A DNA stretch of 56,180 bases from Armatimonadota bacterium (GCA_015486155.1 WFSF01000202.1:1-56180); one strand, 5' to 3'. Positions 31,280 to 56,180 are shown, counted from the stretch's first letter. Made by a program: numbers and translations. Notes: generated by a model from the letters alone, not told the origin.

Positions 31280-31308
31280 TTGACACGCGCCCGGGATCCA
31301 CGTATATA
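31280..31308 (+). promoter_or_regulatory. Near-consensus sigma70 promoter upstream of abiEi
   Basis: TTGACA (31280-31285), an exactly 17-nt spacer, then TATATA (31303-31308), about 45 nt upstream of ATG 31353. Confidence 0.45.
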
Positions 31309-31352
31309 TACCGGTGACGCTAATTATATGATGTTGCCGTTGGTGGTAAATC

Positions 31353-32171: not shown

Positions 32172-32938
32172 TAGACCGAAGGGAGCTGCTGGCCCGTGCG
32201 CGAGAACGCCGTCTGCCGCTGGCGATGGTGGAAAAGGACTACGTGCTGGGCTGGGTGTTGTATGGCTTGAGCCAGATTAAAGACCTGGTGTTCAAAGGAG
32301 GGACTGCCCTCTCCAAGGTCTACTTCCCCGAGACTTGGCGGCTTTCCGAAGACCTGGACTTCGTGTCCGACTCCGGCGAATGGTCTGGTCTCCTGGAGCA
32401 AATGACAAGTGCGCTTTCCGAGGTGGCGTCGCAGAGCGGCATCGGGCTTGCAGTGAAAAGCAGGCACATGAACCCCGGCTACCTGCAGTTGAAGATTCAG
32501 TACGACGCGGTGCTGGGCAAGAACTGGGTGAAGGTGGACGTAACCCCTGAGCGGCCGGTGGCGAAGGTCCTGTCCAAGCCGCTCTCACAGCAGTATTCCG
32601 ACTATCCCAGGTTTCGCGTGCGGGTGGAGTGCATCGAGGAGATCCTCGCGCAGAAGCTGCGGGCCCTGGTCGAACGCCGGAAGTCACGGGACTATTATGA
32701 CGTATGGCGCATGCTGCAGCTGGAATTCGACCAGGCCAAGACCAAAACCCTCTTCCGCCGGAAGTGCGCGGTCAAGGGCATCCAGTTTCAGGGTCTCGGC
32801 GACTTCTTCCCGGATGACCTGCCGGACATTCTCCGCGGATACTGGGAACGGGAGCTGGGCCGGCTGGTCCATCCCGTGCCGGAGATGGAAACGGTCCTCG
32901 CGGAATTGCAGGAGAGGACGCGGTCATTCATTGCCTAG
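32159..32938 (+). CDS. abiEii: AbiEii/AbiGii-family nucleotidyltransferase toxin
   Basis: 259 aa. LAMVEKDYVLGWVL, FKGGTALSKVY and SEDLDF (NTase motifs) are typical of DUF1814/AbiEii. Confidence 0.85.
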   Translation: MAILIDRRELLARARERRLPLAMVEKDYVLGWVLYGLSQIKDLVFKGGTALSKVYFPETWRLSEDLDFVSDSGEWSGLLEQMTSALSEVASQSGIGLAVKSRHMNPGYLQLKIQYDAVLGKNWVKVDVTPERPVAKVLSKPLSQQYSDYPRFRVRVECIEEILAQKLRALVERRKSRDYYDVWRMLQLEFDQAKTKTLFRRKCAVKGIQFQGLGDFFPDDLPDILRGYWERELGRLVHPVPEMETVLAELQERTRSFIA

Positions 32939-36509: not shown

Positions 36510-36682
36510 TTCCTCCTATCCGTCCAGAATCTGCCATCCGTAGGGGCAACCTGTTTGGTGGCTCTCTGGATACAGACGTAGCAGTCAAACCAAAAACTGA
36601 GCACCTTGCCGTGCCTTGGTAGTAGAATAACATGAACTTCTTGTTCGTGTAAAGACTACTCCCTCTGTACCTGAGTGGCTCA

Positions 36683-38683: not shown

Positions 38684-38687
38684 GTAA

Positions 38688-39323
38688 TCACGATGGAGCC
38701 TCCCGATTCTTGGCCGTGTCCTTGGTCCTGCCCAGGGAATCAATCTCGCGCCTGAGGGCCCGGATTTCTCGGCCCAGCGCCAGCAAATCGCGCCAGCTCA
38801 TGACGGTCTCTTGCCTTCGCTGCCGCTTGAGCTCCAGCAGTTGCCGCTCCAGATGCCTTCGCTTTTCGAAGTCGTTCAGGACCATGTGGCCCTTCAGCAG
38901 GGACAGCGAACGGTCGCACTCCTCGATGTCAGAATCGATATCCTCCAATGCTGCCGCGGTCATTTTCTTTCTCTGGTCACGCGCGGCTTCAAGCTCCCGC
39001 AGTGTAGCATTGAGCAAATCGAGCCGGTCGGAGAAGAGAGAACGCATCAATTGAAGAGGCCGGAACCTGGGTTCTCCATCCCTTTCCGTCGGTCTCCGGT
39101 CCGGCGCTTCGAGGGGCGACCAGTCCTCAAGCGGATGCGACAAATCAGGAATAGCCGACTCCTCTACGGAGTCAGGGGGTAAGGACAAAGATGGATCGGT
39201 AGCCCGGGCTGCGTAGGATTGGCGCTCCAAGTCCCAGCTGAGGGGATAAGGCTGGTAGGTGGGATAGACCTTGTCCAATGGCAAGCGAGAACGGGGCATG
39301 CGCGACCACAGGCACAGGACCAT
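38688..39323 (-). CDS. Coiled-coil protein, unknown function
   Basis: 211 aa (or from ATG 39299). The C-terminal half is heptad-like (LLNATLRELEAARDQRKKM...LERQLLELKRQRRQE...IRALRREIDSL). It is immediately upstream of the ATPase. Confidence 0.6.
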   Translation of the reverse strand: MVLCLWSRMPRSRLPLDKVYPTYQPYPLSWDLERQSYAARATDPSLSLPPDSVEESAIPDLSHPLEDWSPLEAPDRRPTERDGEPRFRPLQLMRSLFSDRLDLLNATLRELEAARDQRKKMTAAALEDIDSDIEECDRSLSLLKGHMVLNDFEKRRHLERQLLELKRQRRQETVMSWRDLLALGREIRALRREIDSLGRTKDTAKNREAPS

Positions 39324-42600: not shown

Positions 42601-44186
42601 ATGTCAACTTACGAGAGCAGTTCCGTGCCTATCTCAAGAATGCTATAGCACTTGTGCTTCAGCAGGACGACTTTTCAGGCCAGCTCAAGGCAAACGTCGG
42701 TTCAGTTCTGGCATCGGTTGGCGCACCGGAGGACATGGCCGAAATGCGTGAGCTGATCCTGGCCGATATTGAAAGAGTCAGGAGAGGACGGGCCGCCCGC
42801 GCCCGAGGTGATCGCGGAAGGTTGGGGAACGGCGCAGTCATGAGCTGGGCGGTCTGGCACATTCGGGCTGCTGTCAAGCTTGACCCGGCGGGCTCAGACG
42901 CGCTCCTGCTGGATCTCTTGACCGAGCCTGAGTATGAGCGCTACGTTGCGGCTGAATTGTCTCGTCTGGTGGCCCCGCCCGCGGCCAAAGATGGATTGCT
43001 GCGGAAGGTAGACTACGGGCGGGTCTGGGAAGCGCGTGCAGGAGTCCAAGAGGAACCTCAGAAGGAACGGCGGAAGCGCTACGCAGCCGCCTTGCGAAGC
43101 CGCATAGAGACGCTTTTGGAAGAACGCTCTAGCACCAAGCAGAAACGTTCCTACGATTCGAGATTGAGAGCACTCGGCGTTGCCCTTGCAGCAATTGACA
43201 GCCACGGGTCAGCCGACTTGGTTTTCGAGGTGATGTCGCTTCCGGATGAATGGGACAACTACACACGCGTCAAGGCATTTGAAGCACTGCTTCTTAGTGG
43301 CGTCGTTTTGCCCACGGACAAGACCCTGACTTTGCTAGACCCCTTACTTGAGCGATGCCGAAAGTATGGCGAGCAGCAAGACCAATGGCTATTGGAACGG
43401 TACTTGTGTCTTCTGCCGTTCGTGGACGATCCTGCTAAAGGCATCGAGAGAATGCGTCAGTTGGTGTCCGAGCTGAGGCTGTCTGGCTATCAGTTGCGAG
43501 AAATGGTAGAAGCGCTCTCGCATTGTCGGTGCGACCAAGCGTTATCCTTCCTAGTCGAACTTGGATCAGACAAGGCGAACATGGAACAGCTCGGAGATAA
43601 ATGGATTGAAGCAGTGGCTGCCGTTGACAGCCCTGAATCTCGGGACCTGCTCCTTAGTTTCGTCGATCCAGAGCTACCAGGATTGCCTGCTGGAGTCGGG
43701 TTGCCGCGGGATGATGTGCTTGCAGTCCGACTGGCCGAGTTGGCTCGGAGAGATCAAGCAGTCAAGCATCGGCTTCTCTGCCTGTGTGGCTCCGAGCTGC
43801 CAGCAGCGAAACGATCTCTGCTTGCAAAGGTCGTGGGGCAGATTGGCGATGTGGAAGCTATTTGTGCCGGTCTCAATCTTATCGATGACACGGCCAGCAT
43901 GCCCGTTCCCCACGGGATATTGAGACAGATCGAAGGTGCGTTTGTTGAAAGGCAACCGTATGGCGGGAGGTATGACATCTATACTCTCGAACCTCGAAGC
44001 TCCAATGCAATCAGGGCCAGGCTTTTTGAGATGGCGACCACGGATGAGCAGCGCAAGAGATCGGCATTGAGGCTCCTAGGACAAATCGAAGAGTGGCGGC
44101 TCGAGTACGGTAGACCAGTTGGAGAACCTCGACACCCCGCATTCGATTCGGGTAAACCCTGGCCCGCAATGCTGCACGCACAGTAG
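39651..44186 (+). CDS. STAND/NACHT-type NTPase with N-terminal restriction-endonuclease-like domain and C-terminal HEAT/ARM-like repeats
   Basis: 1511 aa. N-terminus FQGLAVVLAKKRWPDLIACERHRDLGADAIAE is Mrr-like, but I see no clear QxK. Walker A is VLEGPAGRGKTTTL and Walker B-like is FSFLLNGWNEI. The roughly 900-aa helical repeat tail has HEAT-like periodicity. Confidence 0.85.
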   Translation: MAILRSDIERALDDLVSNQEGMRFQGLAVVLAKKRWPDLIACERHRDLGADAIAEAPFAAEGEGKVFACSISASIAKICSDAEKAKANFKNITKMIFATPRGISKTKEKQWAEKIKKDFGMDLTIMSREDIITSLMDPTNASLLKSHLGIHVEIEPALSELVEQVKEAAAEVTTAWSKRLAGKPLLELRARKIDPEGRDSADVLQFSDIAAALLQGTRVVLEGPAGRGKTTTLIQLAEERAKAGGISFLIDLTAWTKSGSGILEFIAGMPQFQARSLDAAILARVYTAEHFSFLLNGWNEIGESEFRHAESALRSLERDFPAAGIIVATRTHHIVPQLPRAVRARLLTLTRRERAAYLKDRLGVRAGQLRSKLDGDPVLDDLTRTPFFLSEVTSLFEADEPIPSTKIGVLTVVIRLVERSDEHRNRLQEPPLAGRARDYLGELATRMTAQGTVIISEEKARQAVSDVGTSLKHSGQIANVPDPSGVLGALCAQHVLERQDYPEVVFRFEHQQFQEFYAAVTIGKHLFEVLPEADEEKRREFTRLYVNEPAWAEPLRLLADDVRGRSGGTNGTRAIEAGTLLVRMALSVDPVFAAELARLCGPHVWKQVRTAISDRLRSLYAASDASWRNCALAGMLATGSDDFKDIVEPLVSSDDQQVSLGTYRTWDEFHVSSLGPGWCDTVGSWGETARVTFVSEVLRHQNAPQVAAFALTDPSTKVKEAAIQRLCWIGAEEDAAQFLDSLDEPTFDLIVEHLGPRFIPKPIRTRAIAVLQQCRAKATDPLARLRTLLRTFEMGVPKDVDQIKEDLESITERIDEHQAYYVIRPALDIVREKDPLWVSAWVAGRIADGFLRHESWHNMITAVPEGLEQELLHRLETEDLNHAHLDDIIAVLAADADVTMVERAFAKLCDLRRTITNEPDQRHEFEWAIERQLETLLKALPASIAVAGMSRCFSKEVDIVELDVITRVFSSVACADLELREQLDVNLREQFRAYLKNAIALVLQQDDFSGQLKANVGSVLASVGAPEDMAEMRELILADIERVRRGRAARARGDRGRLGNGAVMSWAVWHIRAAVKLDPAGSDALLLDLLTEPEYERYVAAELSRLVAPPAAKDGLLRKVDYGRVWEARAGVQEEPQKERRKRYAAALRSRIETLLEERSSTKQKRSYDSRLRALGVALAAIDSHGSADLVFEVMSLPDEWDNYTRVKAFEALLLSGVVLPTDKTLTLLDPLLERCRKYGEQQDQWLLERYLCLLPFVDDPAKGIERMRQLVSELRLSGYQLREMVEALSHCRCDQALSFLVELGSDKANMEQLGDKWIEAVAAVDSPESRDLLLSFVDPELPGLPAGVGLPRDDVLAVRLAELARRDQAVKHRLLCLCGSELPAAKRSLLAKVVGQIGDVEAICAGLNLIDDTASMPVPHGILRQIEGAFVERQPYGGRYDIYTLEPRSSNAIRARLFEMATTDEQRKRSALRLLGQIEEWRLEYGRPVGEPRHPAFDSGKPWPAMLHAQ

Positions 44187-44187
44187 T

Positions 44188-44206
44188 GGTCTGACGGGTT
44201 CAGACC
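44188..44206 (+). terminator. Hairpin directly after the STAND gene stop (weak intrinsic terminator candidate)
   Basis: GGTCTGA-CGGGT-TCAGACC, a 7-bp stem starting 2 nt after TAG 44184-44186. It is followed by TTCA, so the U-tract is poor. Confidence 0.3.
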
Positions 44207-44706
44207 TTCAGGGCAGTGTTGTCTTGTCAGTCGGGCATGGGTGATCTACTTTGGTGGAGTAAAGAGCATCGAGGTGGCACTGAGGACCCGATGCCACCTC
44301 TCAGACATCTCATGCTTCTCTTATTTCAGACTGTTTGCTATAACGAAGAGCACTGACATCAAGAACAAGCCAACTGGTGTAAGCTGAGGTGATTCCGATA
44401 TGAAGTTGTTCTTCCTCTGCCAGTCCCAAGTAAGCGACACCGGACCAGCGGCGGGTGCAAGCTGATCATACGGTCACCTAGCATAGCGCCTTACAAACTC
44501 TAACCCTATCGAGAAGGCGGGATATAGCGGACATGTTAGGGAGCACGGTGCTGGTTGTGCAGTAACAATTGGTAAGAGTTACAGGCTCAGCGACCAGCAC
44601 TCCCAACCAAGCCGCATCCGCACCAACCGCACCCTCTCCCTGTAGCACCCACATATTGCCGGGGGCGCATTCTTGTCCATTGCGTTCCGCCGCTCATTGC
44701 GCTCAG

Positions 44707-45720
44707 GTGATTCTCACGCGCCCCCAGGCCCGCATCAAGATGGGATACTACCCGACGCCCCTGCCGGTAGTCGACAGAATCGCCTCCTTCCTTGAGTTTC
44801 CCGACGAGAACGTGACCCTGCTCGACCCGTGCTGCGGGGACGGGGCTGCCCTCAGCAGGCTGGCGCAGGGCCGGAACGCGGAGACCTACGGCATAGAGCT
44901 GGACCAGCACAGGGCAGGGCTCGCGAGGGAGGCGCTCGACCACGTGCTCGCGTGCGGATACGAGGATGCAAGGATCACCAACGCCGCGTTTTCCGGGCTC
45001 TTCCTGAACCCGCCTTATGACTGGGCAGAGGCCGGGGAGACAGAGCGCAGCGAGCGGAAGGAAGGACTGTTTCTGCGGGGGACGGCCCGTTATCTCAGGC
45101 CGGGCGGAGTCCTCGTTTACATAGTGCCCCAAACCCAGATGCGGAACGGCGTCGCGAGATTTCTGAGCTACCGCTTTCAGAACTTCAGCGCATTCAGGTT
45201 CCCAGGGGAGCACTACGACGAGTACCGGCAGATTGTGCTGTTCGGCGTTAAGAAGCGCAGGGGCGAACTGGCCGGGGATGACTTCGAACGCCTGCAGGCG
45301 ATCCCGCGGGAAACCCTGTCCGAGCTGCCCTGCCTGGACAGTCCGCGCTATTCCCTCCCGCCTGGGGGTGAGGTCAGGCTGTTCCGGTCCACCCTGATTG
45401 ACGAGGAAGAGCTGGAGCAGGAGCTGAGGGCCTCGCCTCTGTGGGAGCGGTTGAGATACGACAACAACAGCACCGGTAAGCTGGGCCGGCCCCCTCTGCC
45501 GTTGCACGCAGGGCACCTGGGTCTGCTGCTCGCGAGCGGCCAGCTGGACGGGGTTGTAGGCGACGGGGACGACCGCCATGTGGTCCGCGGCAAAGTGGAA
45601 AAGGTCGTCCACAGGTATCAGGAATATGAGGGGGAGAGGCGGGTGGAAATAGAGGTCGAGCGCTACCAGGTCTCCATCAAGCTGCTGAGACAAGACGGGC
45701 GGATAGTGACGCTGATGTGA
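44707..45720 (+). CDS. N6-adenine DNA methyltransferase (DUF6094-like class I MTase)
   Basis: KMGYYPTPLPVVDRI N-terminal signature, LDPCCGDGAAL (motif I), LFLNPPYD (motif IV). Start is either GTG 44707 or ATG 44740. The track ORF start at 44569 adds low-complexity sequence. Confidence 0.8.
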   Translation: MILTRPQARIKMGYYPTPLPVVDRIASFLEFPDENVTLLDPCCGDGAALSRLAQGRNAETYGIELDQHRAGLAREALDHVLACGYEDARITNAAFSGLFLNPPYDWAEAGETERSERKEGLFLRGTARYLRPGGVLVYIVPQTQMRNGVARFLSYRFQNFSAFRFPGEHYDEYRQIVLFGVKKRRGELAGDDFERLQAIPRETLSELPCLDSPRYSLPPGGEVRLFRSTLIDEEELEQELRASPLWERLRYDNNSTGKLGRPPLPLHAGHLGLLLASGQLDGVVGDGDDRHVVRGKVEKVVHRYQEYEGERRVEIEVERYQVSIKLLRQDGRIVTLM

Positions 45721-45724
45721 TGGC

Positions 45725-46273
45725 ATGCTGGAGAGAGTGCGGTACCGGGACCTGGCGCGGGGCATAGACGTGCATGCGTTCACGGACGGGTACGCCTACG
45801 ATGACTACGGCCGGGTTCATCTGCTCTCTGTTGCGGGCAGGGACAGCAATGTGAAGGCCGTCACGACCGCGCTGGTGAGCGGCTTCGAGGTCGAGGTGAT
45901 CTCTGGCGAATGGCTGGCCCTGCGCAAGGATTACGCCGAGCAGTACCGCGTCCTCAGCGCCAGACTGCCTTCGGGGCTGGTGCATCAGCTCGTGCTCTCG
46001 CATGGTTTTTTCGAGCGCGACGGCTTGCCGCGCAGGCTGGTGTATGCAGAGGACGAGGACGGCATAGCGCGGCTGGTCTACGAGACGGTGAGGGGCAGCT
46101 ACGCGGTCCCTCTCATCCCCGAATGGTCGGACTGGCTCTGCGAGAGAATGAGGAGAGAGGACATGCTGCGGCAGCTCTCCGGCACCCGCACGGTGGTGGA
46201 GATCAGCGCCGACGAGGAGCGGCTGGATGAGCTAATTTCGGCAGGGGTCATGAACGGAGAGATAAGGTTCTAA
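45725..46273 (+). CDS. Hypothetical protein between the methyltransferase and helicase
   Basis: 182-aa ORF starting 5 nt after the MTase stop. Codon usage matches its neighbours. No motifs recognised. Confidence 0.55.
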   Translation: MLERVRYRDLARGIDVHAFTDGYAYDDYGRVHLLSVAGRDSNVKAVTTALVSGFEVEVISGEWLALRKDYAEQYRVLSARLPSGLVHQLVLSHGFFERDGLPRRLVYAEDEDGIARLVYETVRGSYAVPLIPEWSDWLCERMRREDMLRQLSGTRTVVEISADEERLDELISAGVMNGEIRF

Positions 46274-46281
46274 GGGATGGC

Positions 46282-48366
46282 ATGCTCGACGGCATTCAGG
46301 ACATGGACGGTTACCTGCGCGCCTACGGGCCGGCGCTGGCGGAGCGGATCAAGGAACAGGCAAAGCCCCTTTTCTCCCCTGGCGATCCCTGGGACGACCG
46401 GCTCTACCGGCTGCTGAAGCGCCCGTACCAGGCCCAGGGCGACGCCATCATGGGCCTGTGCAGATTGCTCGACGACTACGATTCGGCCATTGTGGTCGGG
46501 GAGATGGGGTGCGGGAAGACGTTGATAGGGCTGGCGGTGCCCTACGTCCAGCATCCGCGGGACAGGCCGGCGAGGACGCTGGTGATGTGCCCCGGGCACC
46601 TGGTGAGGAAATGGCAAAGGGAGGCGAAGGAAACCATCCCGCATGCCGAGGCGAGAATCGTCAGACACCTCGGGGATGTGCTCGACCTGGACCGGGCCAG
46701 CCGGCCTGATGCCCCCGAGTACTTCATCGTCAGCAAGGACAGGGCCAAGCTCGGCTATGCCTGGAGGCCGGCCGTGGTCGAGAGCAGAGATATATATCAC
46801 TGTCCGACATGTCACGCCCCGGTTCTGGACAGGAACGGCGTTCCGGCGGACTACGGCTATCTCAGCCGGAACAAGCGCCGCTGCGGCCGGTGCGACGCGC
46901 CCCTGTGGGAGGCCGACAACACCCGTATCCGGCGCTACCCAATCGCGGAATACATCAAGAAGCACTTGCGCGGCTACTTTGATTTCCTGATCGCCGATGA
47001 GGTGCACGAGCTGAAGGGAGGGGATACGGCCCAGGGCAACGCCTTCGGCGCGCTGGCGAGCGCGTGCAGGAAGACGCTGGCGCTGACCGGGACCTTGCTG
47101 GGCGGCTACGCGGATGACGTGTTCTACGTGCTGTATCGGCTTTCCCCTCAGGCGATGCAGGAGGACGGGCTGGACTACCGGCAGGTCACGGGCTGGCTGG
47201 CGAGATACGGGGTGCTGGAAAAGGTGACCAAGTACTATCCCGCGGATAACGTGTTCTCCAAGGGAAAGAGAGGGCGCACGGTGGTCAGGAGAAAGCCAGG
47301 GGTCTCTCCGGCGGTGTTCTCCAGGCATTTGCTGGACAAGACCGTGTTTCTCTCGCTGGACGATGTCGCGCCCGACCTGCCTCCCATCTCGGAGGAAGTC
47401 ACGGGCGTCGAGATGGGCGAGGAGCTTGGGCATGCCTACGAGGCGCTGGAGGACGAATTGTCGTCAGCGGTGCGGGATGCGCTGGCCCAGGGGGACAAGA
47501 CGCTGCTGGGAACCTATGTCAACGCGTTGCTGAGCTATCCGGACAGGCCTTTCGACAACGCGCCCCTGGTGCATCCCCGCACGGGAGAGGTGATCGCGCA
47601 GCCTGCCGAGCTGCCGCGCGACCGGGTTTACCAGAAGGAACAGAAACTGCTGGAGCTGGTGCGGGAGAGCGTGTCCGAAGGCAGGAGGGTGTTCTGCTAT
47701 GCGCAGTACACCGGCATCCGGGACGTTACGGCCAGGCTGCAGGAGTTGCTGATGGACGAGGGCATCGAGGCGCAGGTGCTGCGCTACTCGGTGCCGCCGG
47801 AGAAGAGGGAGGAATGGCTGCGGAATCAGGTGGAGTCAGGAGCGCAGGTCGTGATTGCAAACCCGAAGCTGGTTCAGACGGGGCTGGACTTGTACGACTT
47901 CCCGACGCTGGCCTTCTACCAGACAGGATACTCCGTCTACTCGCTGCGGCAGGCCTCGAGGAGGTCGTGGAGGATAGGCCAGGACAAGGACGTCAGGGTT
48001 CATTATCTGTACTACCGCCCCACCATGCAGGAAAGGGCCATGCATCTCATGGGCTCAAAGCTGCAGGCCTCGCTTGCCGTCGAGGGCAAGTTCTCAGAAG
48101 AGGGTTTGCTCGCCATGACGCAGGGAGAGGACATGGCGACCGCGCTTGCGCGCGCTCTGGTGGACGGCTTGGAAGGCGAGGGAGTGGAGGAGATTTGGCA
48201 CAGCCTGAACAAGAAAAACCTTACAGGCGGACATGAGGGGACCAGGGGCGACGGGTTGCTGTTCTACATTGATCCCGTCGGGGCCGCAAAGCGGACGAAG
48301 AGGCGCAGCACGAGGCGCAAGAGGGCGGTGGATGCGGGGCAGATGGGGTTGTTTCCTGAGTTATAG
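46282..48366 (+). CDS. SNF2/DEAD-like superfamily-2 helicase with inserted Zn ribbon
   Basis: 694 aa. Motifs VVGEMGCGKT (I), LIADEVHELKG (II), LALTGTLLGG (III), QASRRSWRIGQ (VI). The insert is CPTCHAPV...CGRCDAPL. The C-terminal tail is basic. Confidence 0.85.
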   Translation: MLDGIQDMDGYLRAYGPALAERIKEQAKPLFSPGDPWDDRLYRLLKRPYQAQGDAIMGLCRLLDDYDSAIVVGEMGCGKTLIGLAVPYVQHPRDRPARTLVMCPGHLVRKWQREAKETIPHAEARIVRHLGDVLDLDRASRPDAPEYFIVSKDRAKLGYAWRPAVVESRDIYHCPTCHAPVLDRNGVPADYGYLSRNKRRCGRCDAPLWEADNTRIRRYPIAEYIKKHLRGYFDFLIADEVHELKGGDTAQGNAFGALASACRKTLALTGTLLGGYADDVFYVLYRLSPQAMQEDGLDYRQVTGWLARYGVLEKVTKYYPADNVFSKGKRGRTVVRRKPGVSPAVFSRHLLDKTVFLSLDDVAPDLPPISEEVTGVEMGEELGHAYEALEDELSSAVRDALAQGDKTLLGTYVNALLSYPDRPFDNAPLVHPRTGEVIAQPAELPRDRVYQKEQKLLELVRESVSEGRRVFCYAQYTGIRDVTARLQELLMDEGIEAQVLRYSVPPEKREEWLRNQVESGAQVVIANPKLVQTGLDLYDFPTLAFYQTGYSVYSLRQASRRSWRIGQDKDVRVHYLYYRPTMQERAMHLMGSKLQASLAVEGKFSEEGLLAMTQGEDMATALARALVDGLEGEGVEEIWHSLNKKNLTGGHEGTRGDGLLFYIDPVGAAKRTKRRSTRRKRAVDAGQMGLFPEL

Positions 48367-48462
48367 ACGAGAGATTCGGACGTCTCCGGGAAGCGTGCCG
48401 AATCACGCTCTTATGTTCTGCTAGGCGATGGCACACAGACCAGTGCGGGAAAGCCGAGAGGG

Positions 48463-50103
48463 ATGATGGAACGCAACGGGGGGCCGGGTCGAAAAATAGT
48501 AGCCGTGTGCATCGGCGTGAATAGCTACGAGTGCCGGGAGTTGGCCCCTCTGGAGAATGCGGTGGCCGATGCAGAGAGCATTGCGACCGCCATCGAACAA
48601 ACGCAGGGAACGAAAGGCTGCGTCATCTTCAGATTGTTTTCCGACGCAGACAGCCCGGGGCACCCGACGAAGAAACAGATTCTCCGCACGCTGCGAGAAG
48701 CGCGCTCAACAACGGACCCCGAGGACACGGTGCTGGTCTTTTTTGCGGGTCACGGCAGGACCGTGGACGGCCGTCCGGCGTTGATACCGCAGGACGGAAA
48801 TCCGTTCGCAGAACAGCCGTTGGAATCCTTGCTTTCCGTCGAGGAGATATGGTCGGTCTTCCGGGGATGCCCAGCTCGTTATCGGATAATGCTACTGGAT
48901 GCGTGCGGTGTCGGGATTCCCGCGCGAGACAAAGCAGGTCTGGCGGGAGCCCGAAACGCTGGCGAAGCCGGACGCTGGCGCGCCCGGGGGGCTGTCTCGG
49001 CGGAGTTCGTGGAGGGGATTGCTGCCGAGGCGTCAGGCTGGGTTGTGGTCACGGCATGCGGGGCCGGACAGGTGTCGCTGGAGGAGGACGACCATGGCCT
49101 GTTTTCCTACTATGTCGCGGCGGGGCTAAGAGGACAGGCCGACCTGGACCGCGACGGTGTAGTGGACATGGCCGAGCTTGTCCAGTATGTGGCGAAGCAG
49201 GTGCCGGCTGCCGCTGAGTCTGCTGCCGGCCTGCTGCAGGAGCCGAGTGTCATCTGGCGGGGCCCGGCAAGCATTCCATTGACGAGGCTGGGAGGCGTGC
49301 CCAATGATCCGCGGCCCGTCCAGCAACAAAGGACCTCGTGGCCTGGCCCTGGTTTTCCGCGGCTTTGGCTCCGCAAGATGCGGCGCGGCTGGCGCATGGA
49401 AGGCATTCGGGCGCGCTCTTTCCTGGTGCTCGGAATTGGCCTGCTGTTCGGAGCTGTGGTAAGCCTTGAGGCCCTCATATTCACCCCCACTGCGCAGTCA
49501 CTGAAATGGACCGTGTTCGCGGTGGCGCTGGGCATTGCGAGCCTTGCGGTATGGTGGGCTGTGCTTTCCCTGGCGGTGGCCGCATGCGAGGCAAAATGGC
49601 ACGGTGGGGGCTACGTAACCGCAACGGTGTTGGCGGTCTGGCACTTGGTGATATTCGCTCTGGTGTCCCGTCACGCAGCAGCGCCAGGTTCGCGGAACAT
49701 TCTGGCGATTGACCTGTTCGCGATTGCGTCCGTGATGATAGCGCTCGGGTTGAATGCGTTCCAGTTTGTTGTGGCGGTAGCGGATCTTCTCGCGCGGGGA
49801 GAGCGTATTCCGGCGCACACCGGCCTGAGGGAGCTCGAACGCAAGTGGCTGCACGCCAGGATTCCCAATCTCATCGCCATGCAATCAATTCATCCCCTGG
49901 CCTATTTCCTGCTGTTTGGACTGGGAGGGGGAGCGCTGCTGCTGGTCCACATGGCTCGCCTGCTCTGGTCGCCGGACCTGGACTCACAGGCGTGGTTCGG
50001 GGCGCTGCGGGATTTGGCACTGCTGCTATTGATCTGGTCGCAGGCCGCGTGGTATCAGGCAGCATACCGCTTCTTGTCGGGAGAGGCGAGACCGCAGGTG
50101 TGA
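48463..50103 (+). CDS. Caspase-like (peptidase C14) domain protein with C-terminal polytopic membrane region
   Basis: IVAVCIGVNSY..., catalytic His context VLVFFAGHG, catalytic Cys context IMLLDACGVG. The last roughly 240 aa contain at least 5 hydrophobic helices (FLVLGIGLLFGAVV, VFAVALGIASLAVWWAVLSLAVAA and others). Confidence 0.8.
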   Translation: MMERNGGPGRKIVAVCIGVNSYECRELAPLENAVADAESIATAIEQTQGTKGCVIFRLFSDADSPGHPTKKQILRTLREARSTTDPEDTVLVFFAGHGRTVDGRPALIPQDGNPFAEQPLESLLSVEEIWSVFRGCPARYRIMLLDACGVGIPARDKAGLAGARNAGEAGRWRARGAVSAEFVEGIAAEASGWVVVTACGAGQVSLEEDDHGLFSYYVAAGLRGQADLDRDGVVDMAELVQYVAKQVPAAAESAAGLLQEPSVIWRGPASIPLTRLGGVPNDPRPVQQQRTSWPGPGFPRLWLRKMRRGWRMEGIRARSFLVLGIGLLFGAVVSLEALIFTPTAQSLKWTVFAVALGIASLAVWWAVLSLAVAACEAKWHGGGYVTATVLAVWHLVIFALVSRHAAAPGSRNILAIDLFAIASVMIALGLNAFQFVVAVADLLARGERIPAHTGLRELERKWLHARIPNLIAMQSIHPLAYFLLFGLGGGALLLVHMARLLWSPDLDSQAWFGALRDLALLLLIWSQAAWYQAAYRFLSGEARPQV

Positions 50104-50104
50104 G

Positions 50105-50662
50105 ATGAGCGAAATGCAGGACAGGCAGGTGCCGTGGAAACAGAGGCCGCTGCTCTACTGGGGCATCACCGCTGCTGGCACCGCTGGGTTCTGTGTCTAT
50201 TCAAGGTCTTGGCAGGACCTTGTTCACGCCATCTATGACCTTACAGCTGGGGTGGCGGTATTCTCGTTTGTGGCGCAAGTCGCGGTGGAGCAGTTGACCG
50301 GTCAGGGCGGCAGATTGAGGGCAGTCCGCGCATGGCTTCTGTTGCCTGTAGCCCTGTTTCCCGCAGGGCGCGAATTCCTGGGATGGAAGTTTTCCGGACA
50401 CCTCACTGACTCTTTGCTTGTGGCGGGGGTGCAGACCGCTGAAAGCACCCTGCCTTACTGGCTTCGGGCCTTGTATTGGGCGGTGGTCGCTGTCGCGGTT
50501 TCCCTGCGCTGGACGGTTTTCGATGCGGGCGGTCACGGAGAGACGTACGCGGCGATAGCCATCGCTGGGGTGAGCCTCGGAATTGCCGCCGTGCTGAGTC
50601 GCGCGTTCAGAGATAAGCCCCGCACGACGCACTCCGGCACGGGTCGCGGGAGCACTTACTAG
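50105..50662 (+). CDS. Membrane protein, unknown function
   Basis: 185 aa, starting 2 nt after the caspase gene stop. 4-5 hydrophobic helices. Confidence 0.6.
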   Translation: MSEMQDRQVPWKQRPLLYWGITAAGTAGFCVYSRSWQDLVHAIYDLTAGVAVFSFVAQVAVEQLTGQGGRLRAVRAWLLLPVALFPAGREFLGWKFSGHLTDSLLVAGVQTAESTLPYWLRALYWAVVAVAVSLRWTVFDAGGHGETYAAIAIAGVSLGIAAVLSRAFRDKPRTTHSGTGRGSTY

Positions 50663-50690
50663 AACAAACCAGCAACAAGGAGCAATCGGC

Positions 50691-51548
50691 ATGCCAGAAT
50701 TGATGGAATGGTTGCGGGAGAGGGCCAGCCAGGTCATTGCGCAGTGCTATCCCGAAGAGCTCCCGCTGTTCGAACGCTTCTGGCCTGCCCTGTCAGACGA
50801 GATCCTTCGCTGGAAAGGGAAACCTCCCGGCGGGAGAGCGCTGGGGAGGTATCGGAGGCGCGCCCGCTCTCTGCTGGGCCCCGATATCCGTCTTCGGGGA
50901 CCGCGGGTAATGATTCCGACGGTGGTGGGGATTCTAGTGGCCTCAGTCCTGGAGCTGGTGAGTAAGGAGTGCCGGGACTGGGATGAAATTCAAAGGGTTG
51001 TGAACCGACAAGCGCTGCAGTTTGGCCTTGGAGAAACTGATCCGGCACGCGGGCAGGAGGTGGCAACTGCGATCGCGCGGCTGGTCTACGCCCAGATGCA
51101 GGAACTGGAAGGAGTCAGGGCCGAGCCATTGGCGGGAGTCAGCGGCGCGTTCGTGCTGATCACGCCCACCGGAAGGAAGCCAGTGGCGGAGCGCGAATTG
51201 CAGAAGGCAAGAGAACAAAGTCGTCGCCGGTGCCGCGTCTTCGCTGATCTGACGCAGCAGAAACTCTACGTGGACGGGCGAATCGTGGAAATCCAGCGGA
51301 CGCCTCTGCAATGTCTGACGTGGCTCATGACGCATGAGGGCCGTATATGCACGTATGACGAGTTATGGAAAAGGTGTAGTCGGGCGGCCGATGCTCCTGG
51401 CGCGTCGGCCTCAAGGACGGCGGTGCGTCAATGGGTCTCCAAGATTCTGCAGGCCTGCGGGTGGAAACGCGGATATCCCATCAAGAACCACAAGTACATA
51501 GGATACAGCTGGATTGCCGACTGGGATTACGCCGTGCTCAGGCCCTAG
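50691..51548 (+). CDS. Protein with C-terminal OmpR/PhoB-type winged-helix DNA-binding domain
   Basis: 285 aa with an AAGGAG SD. The C-terminus, LYVDGRIVEIQRTPLQCLTWLMTHEGRICTYDELW...VRQWVSKILQ...NHKYIGYSW, follows the trans_reg_C pattern. No receiver domain. Confidence 0.65.
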   Translation: MPELMEWLRERASQVIAQCYPEELPLFERFWPALSDEILRWKGKPPGGRALGRYRRRARSLLGPDIRLRGPRVMIPTVVGILVASVLELVSKECRDWDEIQRVVNRQALQFGLGETDPARGQEVATAIARLVYAQMQELEGVRAEPLAGVSGAFVLITPTGRKPVAERELQKAREQSRRRCRVFADLTQQKLYVDGRIVEIQRTPLQCLTWLMTHEGRICTYDELWKRCSRAADAPGASASRTAVRQWVSKILQACGWKRGYPIKNHKYIGYSWIADWDYAVLRP

Positions 51549-52255
51549 TAAGAAGGCGGCGGGGGCGGGACATATCTCCCTGCTGAATCAAGTATGTGGT
51601 ACTTGTACAGGTATTCCTGATGCTCGTGGAACATGTCCCTGTGCAAGCGGAGTAACTCCGACCAGGTGTCGAGAAAATTACCCGGGTCCTTGTAGGCGTC
51701 CAGATCTTTGATTTCAAAGTGAAGGGCGTCAATCCAATGCTGGCAACACTCGGGAAAGCATTCACACGCCTTGTCCCCCTGTGCTCGATAAGCGAAGACA
51801 TTGCTGATGTATCGATGGCGTCCCCGCCTCCGGTCGTTTTCGTATTCAGGAATCAATTTGAGCGTTTTCCCGGAGAACTTGTCCCGCCAGGAAGGTCGTT
51901 CTAAGCTGCGCCGATTGGTAGGACCTGAGGTGTAGTCCCAATAAAAGCAGCGCGCAGGATCCCCGCAGTCCCAGGGCGGCTTCTTGCGGTTTATGTACGG
52001 GCACCATCCGTGCCGAAGCCCTCGGACGGCAGCGGCGAAAGCGGACAAGAGATGACTCTCCTGACATGGCTCCGAGGAGCGGATGTGCGGCCGAATTCTC
52101 CCGTAATACACCGTGGCGGGGATTAGCCCGTCATCCCGCTCGGTAATCCGCTGATTCCATAGATCGAGCTGGGAAAACACCTCGAACTCCGGGGCGAATC
52201 CGTCAATCAGCACTAGATACACGTCTTCAAACTCGACTTCGTACCACCACACCAT
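51545..52255 (-). CDS. Hypothetical Trp/Cys/His-rich protein
   Basis: 236-aa ORF on the opposite strand to all its neighbours. G+C is visibly lower. No family recognised. Confidence 0.55.
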   Translation of the reverse strand: MVWWYEVEFEDVYLVLIDGFAPEFEVFSQLDLWNQRITERDDGLIPATVYYGRIRPHIRSSEPCQESHLLSAFAAAVRGLRHGWCPYINRKKPPWDCGDPARCFYWDYTSGPTNRRSLERPSWRDKFSGKTLKLIPEYENDRRRGRHRYISNVFAYRAQGDKACECFPECCQHWIDALHFEIKDLDAYKDPGNFLDTWSELLRLHRDMFHEHQEYLYKYHILDSAGRYVPPPPPSY

Positions 52256-52422
52256 ATGGAGGTGCTGGTGCGAAGTTTTTTATTTCTTTCCCCTCCGAAA
52301 AATCACAGCAGAAATATCTCGGAGAGACATACGGGTCACACGCGCGTGTTGTGCTATTCGCACGGGCAGTCGCAACGCAAATACAGCGGCCCGCCACGCA
52401 ATGCGAGAGAGGAGACGCGAAG

Positions 52423-52644
52423 ATGGCCCATGACGAGCTGCGAACACAGATCCGAGAGCTGGGGAGGCTGGTGAATTCAGTCGCCACCGTGCTGGCCACA
52501 CTCATTGAGAGACTTGACGCACATGGCCTTGTGAGCCGCCGGGAGATACTCGATGCCATTGAGCGCCCAAGCCCCGACCACAGGGACAGGCCAGGCCGGT
52601 CGCTGTCTTGTCCTGCGGGCACGGGCGAGGAGTGGATCAATTGA
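52423..52644 (+). CDS. Small helical protein
   Basis: MAHDELRTQIRELGRLVNSVATVLATLIERLDAHGLVSRREILDAI..., with a GAGAGGAGA SD upstream. The earlier start in the track ORF is less plausible. Confidence 0.45.
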   Translation: MAHDELRTQIRELGRLVNSVATVLATLIERLDAHGLVSRREILDAIERPSPDHRDRPGRSLSCPAGTGEEWIN

Positions 52645-52679
52645 CCAGCAGAATGCCCGGGACGCGGAACGGAGGCGTA

Positions 52680-53381
52680 ATGATGCGGGGATCGCTGCTG
52701 ATCGTAGGAGTGTTGGCATGTTTCCTGTGCGCCGGATGCAACCGCCTTCCGTCAGCGCACAAAACCGGGGAAAGTCCGCAGAAGCCTCTTGATGTGCTTG
52801 TTTTGCTGGACGATTCGGGCTCCTTTGTCCACAGGTCGGAGGCGGTAGACTCCCTGCTCGTTCCGGCCATTGAGCAGCTGCAGGGCGGCGATCGTTTGGT
52901 TTGCAGAGCCATTGGGGCCAATTCGATGCGCGCCGAAGATCTGGTGAACATACGCCTGCCATCGAGCGACAGGCCATTCGACGTGCAATCGGTGAGAGCA
53001 GCCCGGCAGGTCAGGGCGGACGCGGAGGCGAGGCTCCGGGCTTTCGCGCAGCGCCAGCAGAAAGCGCCGCGCACCGACATCGTGGGGGCGATTGCGAGCA
53101 TCACTCAGGTCTCCAGGCGGCCGGGCGCGCAAAGGCTGTTGCTGATCGCCAGCGACCTGCACGACACCGGAGGCGGCCTGGACCGCATGCGCGGCGTGGA
53201 CCTCGGAGGCACGCGGGTCGTCGTCGTCTTCTGCGAGCAGGACGAGTCGCTCGCCGAGTACCAGCACCGGGTCGAGGTCTGGCGCAAGGCGTTCGAGCAG
53301 GCGGGCGCGGTGTCCGTGCGCATCTACAACCCCACCGCGTCGCGTGCGCTGGAGCCGGCCGAGCTGCTCGGAAGGGAGTAA
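52680..53381 (+). CDS. von Willebrand factor A (vWA) domain lipoprotein
   Basis: GGAGG lies 4 nt before ATG 52680. The signal peptide with lipobox is MMRGSLLIVGVLACFLCAG-C. The MIDAS motif is DVLVLLDDSGSF, followed by the later LLLIASDLHDTGG. Confidence 0.75.
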   Translation: MMRGSLLIVGVLACFLCAGCNRLPSAHKTGESPQKPLDVLVLLDDSGSFVHRSEAVDSLLVPAIEQLQGGDRLVCRAIGANSMRAEDLVNIRLPSSDRPFDVQSVRAARQVRADAEARLRAFAQRQQKAPRTDIVGAIASITQVSRRPGAQRLLLIASDLHDTGGGLDRMRGVDLGGTRVVVVFCEQDESLAEYQHRVEVWRKAFEQAGAVSVRIYNPTASRALEPAELLGRE

Positions 53382-53385
53382 GCTG

Positions 53386-54390
53386 ATGGCTTCGTTCCTC
53401 CTGATTGTGGGCATTGCTGTTCTCATCCCTTTGCTGGCCTGGCGCACCAGCCGGCCCTGGCTGACCGCGGCGGGCGCGGTCGTGGGGAACCCGCTCGATC
53501 TGCTGGGCCGTTCGCTTGGGGACGTGGCCCGGCGTGCCGCAGGCTGGTGGCACACAACATTTCCGCCCATTCTGCCGGGCAGGCTGTTGTCTGATCTGAT
53601 GCTGTCGCTGGGCGCGGCCTGCCTGGCCTGGGCGGACCTTCGCCTCCAACAGGCCACGTGGCAGGCCCCCGCCTTTGGTCTTCCTATGGATGTCGGCCTC
53701 AGAACCGGGACCGCGCTGACGTTGGCGCATGTCGTTCTCGGCGCAGTGGTTGTCGAGTTGTACCGGCAGGAGCCGATCATCCGCGTTCTGGAGGGGACCG
53801 AGCCGGGTATGCGGCGCGCGGTCAGAGGGCTTGCGGTGCTCATGTTCCTCACAGGGATCCTGCTCGCAGGTGCTACTTCAGGATTGCGAGCGATTCTGGC
53901 CGCGCAGATGACAGAGGCGGGCGGCGCAGGGTTGACGGTCATGGTCTGGCTGACCGCGGCGATGAGCGTGCTGCTCGGGGTGTTGGTCGCCACTACGGCC
54001 GGGCTGGCGGCAGGGGTGCTTCCCCATTTGCTGGCCGATGCGGCGGCGGTAATCAGCGCGCTCGTGGTGATGGCGTTGGAAATCCTCGCATGGTGTGCGC
54101 AGCTGTGCGCTTCCGTCTGGGCGCGCGTGTGGGCGGTGCCCCTGGCTGCGGTTGGCGTGATTCAGGAGAGCGCCCAGCGCGCCTGGATGCTGCTGGCCGC
54201 GCTCTGGGGCATGGTCGAGCGCGCAGGCTGCGCGCTCATTTCAATCTTGGCACGGGGCCGCCGGCGGGCGGGAGGAGAGTCCGGCTTGTTGCCGGCCTGT
54301 CTGCCGCAGGGTCCCGCGGCCGGAAAGGAGGCACACTGTGAGCAGGGCGCAGACGAAGACACGAGCGGCCGAAGAGCTGCAATTGCTTGA
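53386..54390 (+). CDS. Polytopic membrane protein, unknown function
   Basis: Start at MASFLLIVGIAVLIPLLAW (SD GGGAG). At least 6 hydrophobic helices. It starts 5 nt after the vWA gene stop. Confidence 0.6.
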   Translation: MASFLLIVGIAVLIPLLAWRTSRPWLTAAGAVVGNPLDLLGRSLGDVARRAAGWWHTTFPPILPGRLLSDLMLSLGAACLAWADLRLQQATWQAPAFGLPMDVGLRTGTALTLAHVVLGAVVVELYRQEPIIRVLEGTEPGMRRAVRGLAVLMFLTGILLAGATSGLRAILAAQMTEAGGAGLTVMVWLTAAMSVLLGVLVATTAGLAAGVLPHLLADAAAVISALVVMALEILAWCAQLCASVWARVWAVPLAAVGVIQESAQRAWMLLAALWGMVERAGCALISILARGRRRAGGESGLLPACLPQGPAAGKEAHCEQGADEDTSGRRAAIA

Positions 54391-54616
54391 GCCTGACGCG
54401 TCGAAGGTGCCGGCTCCCTACGCCGGGGATGCCCGTGTTGCGGCGTTCCTGGAGGCGCTGGGGCGGCACGTGGACGCGGCAGTGAGGAGGGCCGTCAAGC
54501 AGGAGATGGAGAGGCTCTCCAAAGAGGCGGCCGCCCAGCGCGAGGCTCGGCAGCAGGCGGCGGCAGTGAGGGAAACGAGTCTGAGCACTCAGGCTAACCG
54601 CTACGCGCAGGACTGA
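54338..54616 (+). CDS. Small charged helical protein (uncertain)
   Basis: 92-aa ORF with a GTG start preceded by AAGGAGG. It overlaps the end of the membrane protein gene by 53 nt. Confidence 0.35.
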   Translation: MSRAQTKTRAAEELQLLEPDASKVPAPYAGDARVAAFLEALGRHVDAAVRRAVKQEMERLSKEAAAQREARQQAAAVRETSLSTQANRYAQD

Positions 54617-54692
54617 ACAGAAGCGGGGGGCACGCGCTCTCCCGTGCCCTCCCGCTGATTCGGTGTTCAAGCGATGAGACGGAGGTGCTGCC

Positions 54693-56078
54693 ATGATTGC
54701 GGTCGGAGTGTGGCCGGGGGATGAGAGCGCGAGAGAATCGGACCGGGCGGGTTGGACGGCCCCGGCCGGATTGGCGAGAGATGGCAGGGATTTGAGCTTG
54801 CTGCAACGGCCTGCCCGCTCGCCATGGGCCGGATGGGAGCAGCTGGCATCGCAGTCCGAACAGGCGGCCAGGCTTGGGCTGGGGCTGCTCGTCATGCCCC
54901 CTGCCGGGACCAGGGTGCCGGATGACTGGTGCAGGCAGCTGCGCGCCGGGGCGGTGTGCGCATGGATCGCTCAGGATGGACAGGGGGGATGGCACGGCGC
55001 GGCGTTTGACGGAGGGGAAGAGCGCCCGGTGGACCGCGTTGTGGCGCTGGATTCCGGGGAGGTTGTAGACCTGACGGACGCCCCGCTCCCTGCCCCGGAA
55101 CTTGCGCCCGGGGTGTGGGACGCGATTCGCGCAGGCATAGGGTCGGCGTTCGCGAGGATACGCGCCTCAGGCTTGCTGGTCGTCGGGTCTGGCCGCATGG
55201 CCGGGCGGACCGTGGAAATCGCGGTGTCGAGCGGTTTCTGGGACATCTGCGTGCTCGACAACGACATCGATGAACCCCGGAACCGGACAGGGCCCCTTGG
55301 CACCAAACCCAGGGAACCCATGCCAAAGCCCAGGCATCTCGCGCGGTATGTGAGAGACCATTTCGAGGGGGTCAGGCTGCGGGAGGAGACCTGTTCCGTT
55401 ACCCAGCGGCCGGCGCTCAGGGCATTACGGGACAGGCCGCTGCTGATTACGGCCACGGACAGCGAGGCGGCCCGGTTCGTGGGTGCCTGTGTTGCCAGCG
55501 CGCTCGGCATTGCGCACCTGGATCTGGGGGCTGGGGTGCATGAGGAAGGAGAAGAGATCAGGAGGGCGGGCCAGGTTGTGTTCATTCCTCCCGGACAGGG
55601 GTGCCTGGTGTGCGTGCGGGGATTGCGCTGGGACGAGGTGGAGCGCGACCTGCAAGGGGACGCCGATGCCCAGCTGGAGGCGCGCCGGCGCGGGGAGCGC
55701 AGGGGAGACACCATGGGAAGCGTCCCGGACCTGCTGGCGAGGGTGGCCGGGGCAGGGGTGGCGCTGCTGCGCCGGTGGATGGGCGGAGAAGAGGGCGAGG
55801 CGCGACGCCTGCTGTTGTATGACGGTGGGCTGGCCGAGGAACTGCCCAGGTCGCTGCCGCAGCAACGCTGTCCGGTCTGCGCGCTGCGAAACTGCGGACA
55901 GGCCTTGCTGAACTGTCTGTTCCCCTCCCCCGGACTGACCGACCGGTCCGAACAGGGCACCCCAGATGAGCAGACCTCTGTAGGCCTGCCTCTCCCTGCG
56001 GCCGATGTCGAACGCGTCCTGGACTTGATGGGGGCGGCGCATCCAGCCGCATGCCTCCGCTCGCAAGGTGCATGGTAA
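54693..56078 (+). CDS. ThiF/E1-like adenylyltransferase-fold protein with unassigned N-terminal domain
   Basis: 461 aa, SD GGAGGTG. Rossmann motif LLVVGSGRMAGRTVEIAVSSGFWDICVLDNDIDEPRNR. E1-like ITATDSEAARFV, plus two Cys pairs (GCLVCV and RCPVCALRNC). Divergent from canonical ThiF/MoeB. Confidence 0.6.
   Translation: MIAVGVWPGDESARESDRAGWTAPAGLARDGRDLSLLQRPARSPWAGWEQLASQSEQAARLGLGLLVMPPAGTRVPDDWCRQLRAGAVCAWIAQDGQGGWHGAAFDGGEERPVDRVVALDSGEVVDLTDAPLPAPELAPGVWDAIRAGIGSAFARIRASGLLVVGSGRMAGRTVEIAVSSGFWDICVLDNDIDEPRNRTGPLGTKPREPMPKPRHLARYVRDHFEGVRLREETCSVTQRPALRALRDRPLLITATDSEAARFVGACVASALGIAHLDLGAGVHEEGEEIRRAGQVVFIPPGQGCLVCVRGLRWDEVERDLQGDADAQLEARRRGERRGDTMGSVPDLLARVAGAGVALLRRWMGGEEGEARRLLLYDGGLAEELPRSLPQQRCPVCALRNCGQALLNCLFPSPGLTDRSEQGTPDEQTSVGLPLPAADVERVLDLMGAAHPAACLRSQGAW
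55996..56038. repeat. Left arm of a 43-bp perfect inverted repeat
   Basis: ctgcggccgatgtcgaacgcgtcctggacttgatgggggcggc, inside the 3' end of the E1-like gene. Its exact reverse complement is at 56138..56180. Confidence 0.9.
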
Positions 56079-56137
56079 GTTCGTCCAGGCTCTGGGCGTC
56101 AGCGTCTCCCGACTCTCCCAGCAGCGCCTCCGCCGCG

Positions 56138-56180
56138 GCCGCCCCCATCAAGTCCAGGACGCGTTCGACATCGGCCGCAG
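56138..56180. repeat. Right arm of a 43-bp perfect inverted repeat (truncated by window end)
   Basis: gccgcccccatcaagtccaggacgcgttcgacatcggccgcag. The arms are separated by a 99-nt spacer. The repeat may continue beyond base 56180. Confidence 0.9.

Follow-up and report, generated by a model that had tools for sequence, protein, structure and literature searches.

E1-superfamily enzymes act on C-terminal carboxylates. To our knowledge, the characterised E1 systems that conjugate proteins all act on beta-grasp proteins ending in Gly. Small-molecule antibiotics are the products of E1-like enzymes that act on peptides, for example MccB and PaaA. Other small tags include the archaeal SAMPs, which are beta-grasp proteins ending in Gly-Gly, and Pup, whose activating ligase is glutamine-synthetase-like and is no E1. 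Here we describe a locus at the end of a contig from an Armatimonadota bacterium (GCA_015486155.1, WFSF01000202.1:1-56180); this whole contig of 56,180 nt is called the window below, and related loci are cited by our own handles (L001, L002 and so on). Our data indicate that the window holds the first five genes of an eight-gene operon, which encodes, among others, a divergent E1-like enzyme and, just upstream of it, a 92-aa protein with a conserved tail ending in Asp. The closest solved relative of the enzyme is BubCD, a JAB-E1 fusion that has no catalytic Cys in its crossover loop (PDB 9ea4, 9ea5 and 9eav; Ye et al. 2024, bioRxiv 10.1101/2024.11.21.623953).

Comparison with type I Bub operons (6E.1) shows both parallels and differences. 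As in BubCD, an N-terminal domain of JAB type, at least in resemblance, is followed by a ThiF-like E1 domain without a crossover-loop Cys, and some relatives of the locus share with type I Bub a mobile or defence context and CapP-type regulators. However, no BubAB (Ubl-E2, with terminal Gly) and no BubE/DUF6527 is present, Pfam and PADLOC scans of the neighbouring genes being negative. The JAB-like domain has no metal site, and about 110 aa are added to the enzyme as an extra C-terminal domain. Instead of a beta-grasp protein with a terminal Gly, the candidate substrate is a helical or disordered protein with a terminal Asp. Partner genes encode a vWA protein, transmembrane proteins, a B-box-like protein and a HerA-type ATPase, and BubCD, although the best PDB match by sequence, is found with only E = 0.011. 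The locus also differs from the Cap2/Cap3 module of the cyclic-oligonucleotide-based anti-phage signalling system (CBASS): there is neither an E2 fusion nor a CD-NTase, and the PADLOC E1-E2 matches are weak and restricted to the adenylation domain. For this architecture, a variant among prokaryotic E1-like systems on mobile islands, no description was found in the literature searched and no entry in Pfam, NCBIfam, PHROG or PADLOC.

The E1-like enzyme and the contig end

The enzyme appears to consist of a JAB-like N-terminal domain, an E1/ThiF adenylation domain and a C-terminal domain confined to its subfamily, 543 aa in total, as judged from alignment and a predicted model. The N-terminal domain (approximately residues 1-135; 54693-55100, plus strand) is beta-rich and has no Pfam match; it is delimited by Foldseek comparison with BubCD and by the family alignment. 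The adenylation domain (approximately residues 137-412; 55101-55930, plus strand) is indicated by a Pfam match slightly below the gathering score, by PDB sequence matching, by Foldseek and by invariant columns. It is followed by a linker and the start of the C-terminal domain (55931-56038, plus strand), from where the true sequence runs off the contig to residue 543, as seen in the alignment and in L008. The latter is a second assembly (66.7 kb) which also encodes the same vWA protein and has the full enzyme gene at 12053-13684. In the alignment of the 7 full-length family members, the C-terminal domain is about 110 aa long, contains an invariant F-x-PERRW motif and is unique to this subfamily.

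The Rossmann motif and the two CxxC pairs pointed out in an earlier note, which was made from the window sequence alone, are indeed present in the protein (GSGRMAG, DNDIDEPRNR and two CxxC pairs). The nucleotide loop, GSGRMAG in the window, reads GxGRAG in the relatives and is degenerate in one member, P0003. D189/D191, K212 and D256 (in TDSEAAR) are invariant, and C304xxC307 and C399xxC402 are conserved as a 2xCxxC zinc tetrad. The position of the NLxRQ motif reads RNRTG, without the canonical Arg; nearby, R196 is invariant and R198 nearly so, and R196-N197 are counted among the features of the adenylation domain. The crossover loop (approximately residues 308-345) is strongly conserved, and no Cys is found in it in any of the seven members.

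For the fold search, the full-length orthologue P0002 was modelled with AlphaFold (pLDDT 70). BubCD is the top Foldseek match of this model, over about 445 columns that include the N-terminal domain; ThiF alone aligns over about 271. The ThiF structures 1zfn and 1zud give TM-scores of 0.76-0.80, normalised to ThiF, with E of about 1e-10, and the core domain also matches UBA3, UBA5, MccB, MoeB and Cap2. By this model the N-terminal domain resembles a JAB/MPN domain. It is about 135-150 aa long, shorter than the roughly 170 aa given in the note, and in place of the E2-like fold that was to be looked for there, the best match is the BubCD JAB-E1 fusion, with the catalytic residues absent. Residues 1-135 of the family alignment contain no HxH motif and no invariant acidic residue or histidine. 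Therefore, if JAB-like, the domain is probably not a metalloprotease.

The subfamily is very rare: approximately 8 proteins were found among 5.8 billion, and an exhaustive HMMER search gave 7 representatives below 1e-30. A profile word-index search found no further subfamily members, and a scan of metagenome contigs with the subfamily alignment found nothing. There was also no match in 72,556 plasmids and none in the phage collection. The full-length copies sit on integrative elements, the window copy lying within a defence island. Beyond the subfamily, there are proteins of about 420 aa (554 below 1e-10) which show the same layout of N-terminal domain and E1 domain and have no C-terminal domain.

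The length of 543 aa differs from the 461 aa read from the window in the note, which is false. The window ends in a 43-nt perfect inverted repeat. By BLAST, L008 1-13398 is 100% identical to window 42641-56038, and window 56030-56180 corresponds exactly to L008 13356-13506 (151 nt) in reverse complement, with the junction at a 9-nt inverted repeat (GGGGGCGGC/GCCGCCCCC). The last 142 nt of the window (56039-56180, with no strand assigned) consist, in reverse complement, of the 99 nt that truly come next and of the 43 nt before them, the partner of the repeat being window 55996-56038. The homologues of the enzyme are all 542-554 aa long, and their continuation matches a minus-strand reading of the last bases of the window. 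This segment is a fold-back mis-assembly, and the true enzyme has 543 aa, as in L008. Because of the fold-back junction, residues 450-461 of the 461-aa open reading frame (ORF) and its stop codon are artefactual; consistent with this, an exact look-up of the 461-aa protein gave no match. The contig end was also considered as a genuine invertible segment or as a hairpin telomere; both were rejected, since the independent assembly is collinear with the homologues and the junction lies at a 9-nt microhomology. A fold-back at a contig end can thus yield a plausible false stop codon and conceal the rest of an operon. Other contigs of the same assembly may end in similar fold-backs.

The tailed protein and the eight-gene operon

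The gene directly upstream of the enzyme (54338-54616, plus strand) encodes a helical or disordered protein of 92 aa that ends in ANRYAQD-COOH. It was only a possible ORF in the note. It is now seen as a real gene, conserved in every locus that reaches it, namely five aligned loci plus L008, where it is identical to that of the window; the orthologue in L002 (9677-9934) had not been called. The proteins of this family are 85-99 aa long and have conserved N-terminal and central residues. The C-terminus is their most conserved segment, with N87, R88 and D92 invariant in the alignment: the tails read ANRYAQD in the window and GNRFAYD, SNRFSYD (twice) and ANRFSYD elsewhere, and L005 has a possible variant, PRQFGAD. 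As the note had stated, neither small protein of the run, of 73 and 92 aa, ends in Gly-Gly. The 92-aa protein had been set aside there for this reason, and it is now the best candidate substrate.

Similar tails occur beside distant E1-like genes of about 30% identity, where small ORFs end in ARFNLD (L013, L014 and L017), VRYSYD (L015) or ARFNQD (L016). In L013, L014, L015 and L017, the tailed ORF stops at most 14 nt before the start codon of the E1-like gene or just overlaps it; in L016, it lies downstream of the E1-like gene. An end of the form [RQK][FYW]xxD is found in only 15 of 11,164 background segments, and five of these 15 are the tailed ORFs of L013-L017. The distant loci contain no vWA, transmembrane, Cys-rich or HerA genes, their neighbours being sigma-like and NACHT genes. 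Because the pair of tailed protein and E1-like enzyme recurs beside such divergent relatives with unrelated neighbours, it is probably older than the rest of the cassette and independent of it. Since E1-superfamily enzymes act on C-terminal carboxylates, we infer, as the simplest reading of these sequences, that the R-[F/Y]-x-x-D tail would be what the E1-like enzyme adenylates.

The five plus-strand genes of the window run are all real, and successive genes in L008 are separated by -4 to +36 nt, which argues for one operon. Its order is: 73-aa protein, vWA lipoprotein, membrane protein, 92-aa protein, E1-like enzyme, Cys-rich protein, small transmembrane protein and HerA-type ATPase. Scans for promoters and terminators gave nothing above chance. 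The vWA, membrane, small-protein and E1 genes occur together in L001 (a contig of a metagenome-assembled genome, MAG), L002 and L008, so that the co-conservation called for in the note is observed; L009 has the first three of this set, and its contig ends before the E1 gene. The E1, Cys-rich, transmembrane and HerA genes occur together in L001, L002, L005 and L008, and L007 keeps the order on the E1 side up to the start of the Cys-rich gene, where the contig ends.

The first gene of the run encodes the small helical protein seen in the note, 73 aa long (52423-52644, plus strand; ORF and L008 gene call), for which no family match was found. An orthologue with 54% identity over 48 aa lies at L002 7837-8007, and this gene, apparently conserved only in the closest relative, is the least certain core member. 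The second gene (52680-53381, plus strand) encodes a vWA-domain protein of 233 aa, whose start is placed by homologues at about 52680 (MMRGS). A hydrophobic N-terminus with features of a signal peptide is followed by a lipobox (LCAGC, of the form A-G-C), so that the protein is a predicted lipoprotein. Its metal-ion-dependent adhesion site (MIDAS) is complete (DDSGS; D44, S46, S48, T132 and D159). The Cys motif and the MIDAS, both noticed earlier, are invariant in 4 orthologues, and the AlphaFold model (pLDDT 81, pTM 0.79) matches integrin I-domains, ITIH1 and VWF-A1 in Foldseek (E from 5e-7 to 1e-5). Pfam VWA_CoxE is matched at 3.7e-5, below threshold (23.7 vs 26.4 bits), and searching the PDB with a profile of the vWA alignment yielded no meaningful match. 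The third gene (53386-54390, plus strand), whose ATG lies 4 nt after the vWA stop, encodes a polytopic membrane protein of 334 aa. A hydropathy scan bears out the at least 6 hydrophobic helices noted before, followed by a charged C-terminal tail. It has no family match, and its orthologues in L001, L002 and L009 are 35-39% identical. PHROGs, NCBIfam and PADLOC gave no match for the small, vWA or transmembrane proteins.

The note had supposed that partners might lie beyond the window end, and L008 contains them, although they are not the expected E2, Ubl and JAB proteins but a Cys-rich B-box-like protein, a small transmembrane protein and a HerA-type ATPase. The Cys-rich protein has eight invariant cysteines and weak B-box, C1 and zf matches. 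The ATPase (708-743 aa, DUF87/HerA) has no transmembrane segment, and its C-terminus contains a winged helix-turn-helix (wHTH) and a restriction-endonuclease-like part. Pfam matches to DUF87 (2.6e-12) and HerA_C (1.1e-8) are both above cutoff, and the best PDB matches are HerA proteins (6e-8 to 1e-5). No E2, beta-grasp protein, DUF6527, CD-NTase, active JAB or thi/moa gene was found in the related loci L001, L002, L005, L007 and L008. Two other affiliations were considered and rejected: membership in MADS, as the mad8 match is only a resemblance of P-loop domains, and the PRTRC ThiF cassette, for which there are trace matches, in distant relatives only.

Possible roles of the cassette

The operon is carried by an integrative element. 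Our tentative best guess is that its E1-like enzyme adenylates the tail and that a role in conflict (anti-phage defence, defence against mobile genetic elements, or exclusion) is the most likely function. The cysteine-less E1-like domain would use ATP to adenylate the C-terminal Asp of the tail (R-[F/Y]-x-x-D-COOH), with the degenerate JAB-like domain as a clamp that binds the tail. Without passing through an E1~Cys thioester, the activated small protein would then be handed to a nucleophile, which could be a target protein or another amine, and the membrane-associated zinc-finger protein may serve as an adaptor. The vWA lipoprotein and the membrane proteins may position or trigger this machinery at the envelope, a sensor role for the vWA protein being pure conjecture on our part. 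The HerA-nuclease-like ATPase would be the DNA-directed output. The conflict role is favoured by the defence genes of the window, the CapP-like regulator in L002, the HerA matches of the ATPase, and the sigma-like and NACHT genes beside distant E1-like relatives.

In its most specific form, this interpretation would make the tailed proteins Pup-like E1 substrates, helical or disordered, that undergo ubiquitin-like chemistry, are ligated without an E2 and are wired to a vWA sensor and a HerA-nuclease effector against phages and mobile elements; in this form we consider it doubtful. Its concept, a small tag activated at its C-terminus and used independently of an E2, would be shared with SAMP/UbaA and Pup/PafA. 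The candidate tag is, like Pup, helical or disordered with an acidic C-terminal residue, which is offered as an analogy only. If the interpretation is true, E1 chemistry extends to a new kind of substrate, a helical protein of 85-99 aa with an invariant Asp end, and the corresponding family of cysteine-less JAB-like/E1-like enzymes would number at least about 550 representatives when clustered at 50%. The conflict systems of mobile islands would also gain an eight-gene cassette that is so far uncharacterised.

Two groups of conflict systems may be compared with the other half of the cassette. PDB entries 8wiv, 8j4u, 8yho and 8xau are HerA entries, most of which we take to be defence-type complexes such as Sir2-HerA. 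As in Sir2-HerA and DUF4297-HerA, the downstream ATPase of 743 aa, which matches HerA in the PDB, is tied to a nuclease-like module. However, the ATPase here bears the nuclease-like and wHTH parts as fusions, Sir2 and DUF4297 are absent, and E1-like, vWA and membrane genes are added. The vWA-containing NTP-dependent conflict systems, reportedly described by Kaur and colleagues in 2020, are said to lie on mobile islands where STAND, caspase and other effectors abound. Both they and the present cassette join a vWA domain with an NTPase on mobile islands, but here the vWA protein is a predicted extracytoplasmic lipoprotein, the NTPase is of HerA type and an E1-like enzyme is present.

Several points weigh against the tail-adenylation and conflict interpretation. 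First, the arginine of NLxRQ is replaced, so ATP chemistry is not guaranteed. Second, the JAB-like assignment comes from a single model of medium confidence, with low global TM-scores in Foldseek (0.34-0.43). Third, the tail could instead be a signal to the ATPase or bind another partner. Fourth, PADLOC yields no matching system, only weak E1-E2 and mad8 domain matches. Finally, the cassette always lies beside recombinases or primases and could therefore be part of the element backbone, serving transfer, and not a defence cargo.

The last point leads to the main rival explanation, which we regard as unlikely: the cassette would serve the integrative element as a module for transfer or secretion. 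The HerA/FtsK-superfamily ATPase with its wHTH would move DNA, TraB-like as in the integrative and conjugative elements of actinomycetes, or export small helical proteins. The polytopic and small transmembrane proteins would form the conduit and the vWA lipoprotein the surface contact. The part of the E1-like enzyme would be to process a small protein, secreted or similar to a pilin, with a tail that could double as an export signal. Such a module would fit the three membrane proteins and one lipoprotein, the recombinases that are always adjacent (with a PriCT primase and a serine recombinase in L002 and L008), and the DUF6094/182-aa/SNF2 backbone common to the window and L002 (56-77% identity). 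The ATPase also has weak TrwB_AAD_bind and TraG P-loop matches, but these span only the P-loop, about 40 residues, whereas its best PDB matches are to HerA and not to VirB4, VirD4 or FtsK, and it has no transmembrane segment. Moreover, conjugation families, including relaxases and VirB-type proteins, were not detected, the 72,556 plasmids gave no match, and the pair of tailed protein and E1 also occurs without these membrane or ATPase genes.

An improbable alternative is a pathway like those of ribosomally synthesised and post-translationally modified peptides (RiPPs) or of microcin C, in which an MccB-type adenylation of the precursor C-terminus would lead to a peptidyl-nucleotide or to a cyclised toxin or signal. 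MccB is among the structural matches, and by analogy with MccB-MccA (microcin C7) the enzyme has no catalytic Cys and a peptide of non-ubiquitin fold with an invariant C-terminal residue is encoded just upstream. The succinimide route requires the Asn with which MccA-type precursors end. In contrast, the tail here ends in Asp, and the putative precursor is 85-99 aa long with conserved N-terminal and central residues, instead of a heptapeptide. The N-terminal domain is also different, resembling JAB and not the peptide clamp of MccB, and the loci contain no exporter, immunity gene or tailoring enzyme.

Very improbable, in our judgement, is a canonical ubiquitin-like conjugation system of the Bub, Bil or CBASS (Cap2/Cap3) type, with its partners outside the window. 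Among solved relatives, BubCD is nearest in sequence as well as in fold, and PADLOC reports weak E1-E2 matches, but the full neighbourhoods of L008, L001 and L002 contain no E2, beta-grasp Ubl, DUF6527 (BubE), CD-NTase or active JAB; the JAB-like domain lacks HxH, and the sequence match to BubCD is marginal.

A ThiF/MoeB adenylyltransferase for a sulfur carrier in thiamine or molybdopterin synthesis is effectively refuted: the core domain matches ThiF and MoeB well in structure, and Pfam ThiF (PF00899) is approached (27.4 bits vs a gathering score of 28.1 for the 461-aa ORF and 26.8 for the full-length L008 protein, with some orthologues exceeding the gathering score in precomputed matches), but NCBIfam TIGR02356 (ThiF) gives 23 bits against an equivalog cutoff of 275, the enzyme has extra N- and C-terminal domains, related loci contain no ThiS/MoaD, thiamine or molybdenum-cofactor genes, and the few homologues among billions of proteins include one on a mobile defence island. 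This supports a non-canonical E1-type system, as the note had proposed, rather than ThiF/MoeB cofactor biosynthesis.

The surrounding island and outlying loci

The cassette adjoins recombinases, and in L002 and L008 also a PriCT primase and a serine recombinase. The defence genes of the window comprise DISARM-like genes, a short prokaryotic Argonaute (pAgo), an OLD nuclease, AbiE, a metallo-beta-lactamase-fold protein with a HerA ATPase, a NACHT STAND protein and a caspase-transmembrane protein. The DISARM-like trio (12319-21256) consists of an SNF2 helicase with NOV_C (1112 aa), a DUF1156 methyltransferase (956 aa) and a DUF499 protein (920 aa), in a block with a lower GC content (about 55%) and a strong GC skew. 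It is followed by the short pAgo (421 aa, Piwi only) and a Hypoth_Ymh protein of 390 aa (22023-24448), which may be a short-pAgo defence pair. The next segment (26438-32938) contains a tyrosine integrase with a C-terminal zinc ribbon, an OLD-family ATPase-TOPRIM nuclease, a Cdc6/Orc1-like AAA+ protein and AbiEi/AbiEii.

On the minus strand, the metallo-beta-lactamase-fold protein is encoded together with a 686-aa DUF87/HerA ATPase (35502-38743). This DUF87 protein (36683-38743, minus strand) was considered as the missing ATPase of the cassette and rejected, as it is paired with the metallo-beta-lactamase-fold protein and shares just 24% identity with the L001 cassette ATPase. By sequence, the pair is a second, separate HerA system on the island.

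Closer to the cassette (39651-48366) lie genes for a 1511-aa NACHT STAND protein with an NCAB2 C-terminus, a DUF6094 methyltransferase, a 182-aa protein and a 694-aa SNF2-like helicase. L002 encodes counterparts of the 182-aa protein (56% identity) and of the helicase (77%), and its methyltransferase gene is cut by the end of the locus; from this similarity, the DUF6094/182-aa/SNF2-helicase set looks like an element backbone. The genes at 48463-51548, encoding a caspase (Peptidase_C14) fused to a multi-transmembrane C-terminal region, a 185-aa transmembrane protein and a 285-aa protein with a weak OmpR-type wHTH, are not conserved beside the cassette in L001 or L002.

Upstream of the cassette in L002 (3831-7338), a sigma-70-like gene overlaps a gene for a CapP-like M78 peptidase (padloc capP, 1.7e-52), followed by an HTH_3/DUF5919 regulator. 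This regulator set is of the CapH/CapP type, which has been linked to immune operons (Ye et al., bioRxiv 10.1101/2024.11.21.623953).

Apparently decayed copies of cassette genes were also observed. In L004, from a MAG of Armatimonadota 'Ca. Zipacnadia', only a fragment of the E1-like gene is present (412-1259). L006 contains an E1-like remnant of 283 aa amid unrelated genes (595-1446), and in L007 the E1-like gene is split into three ORFs (665-2321). In L009, a 190-aa ORF directly upstream of the vWA gene (907-1479) resembles a degenerate second vWA lipoprotein, with the lipobox LASGC and a MIDAS region decayed to VVNSSCF. Finally, two of the distant loci, L014 (121-6028) and L015 (7448-14097), share a recurring order of tailed ORF, E1-like gene, sigma-70-like gene and NACHT STAND gene, the STAND proteins carrying an FGE-sulfatase or a Lon-like domain. 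This neighbourhood may be a separate type of system.

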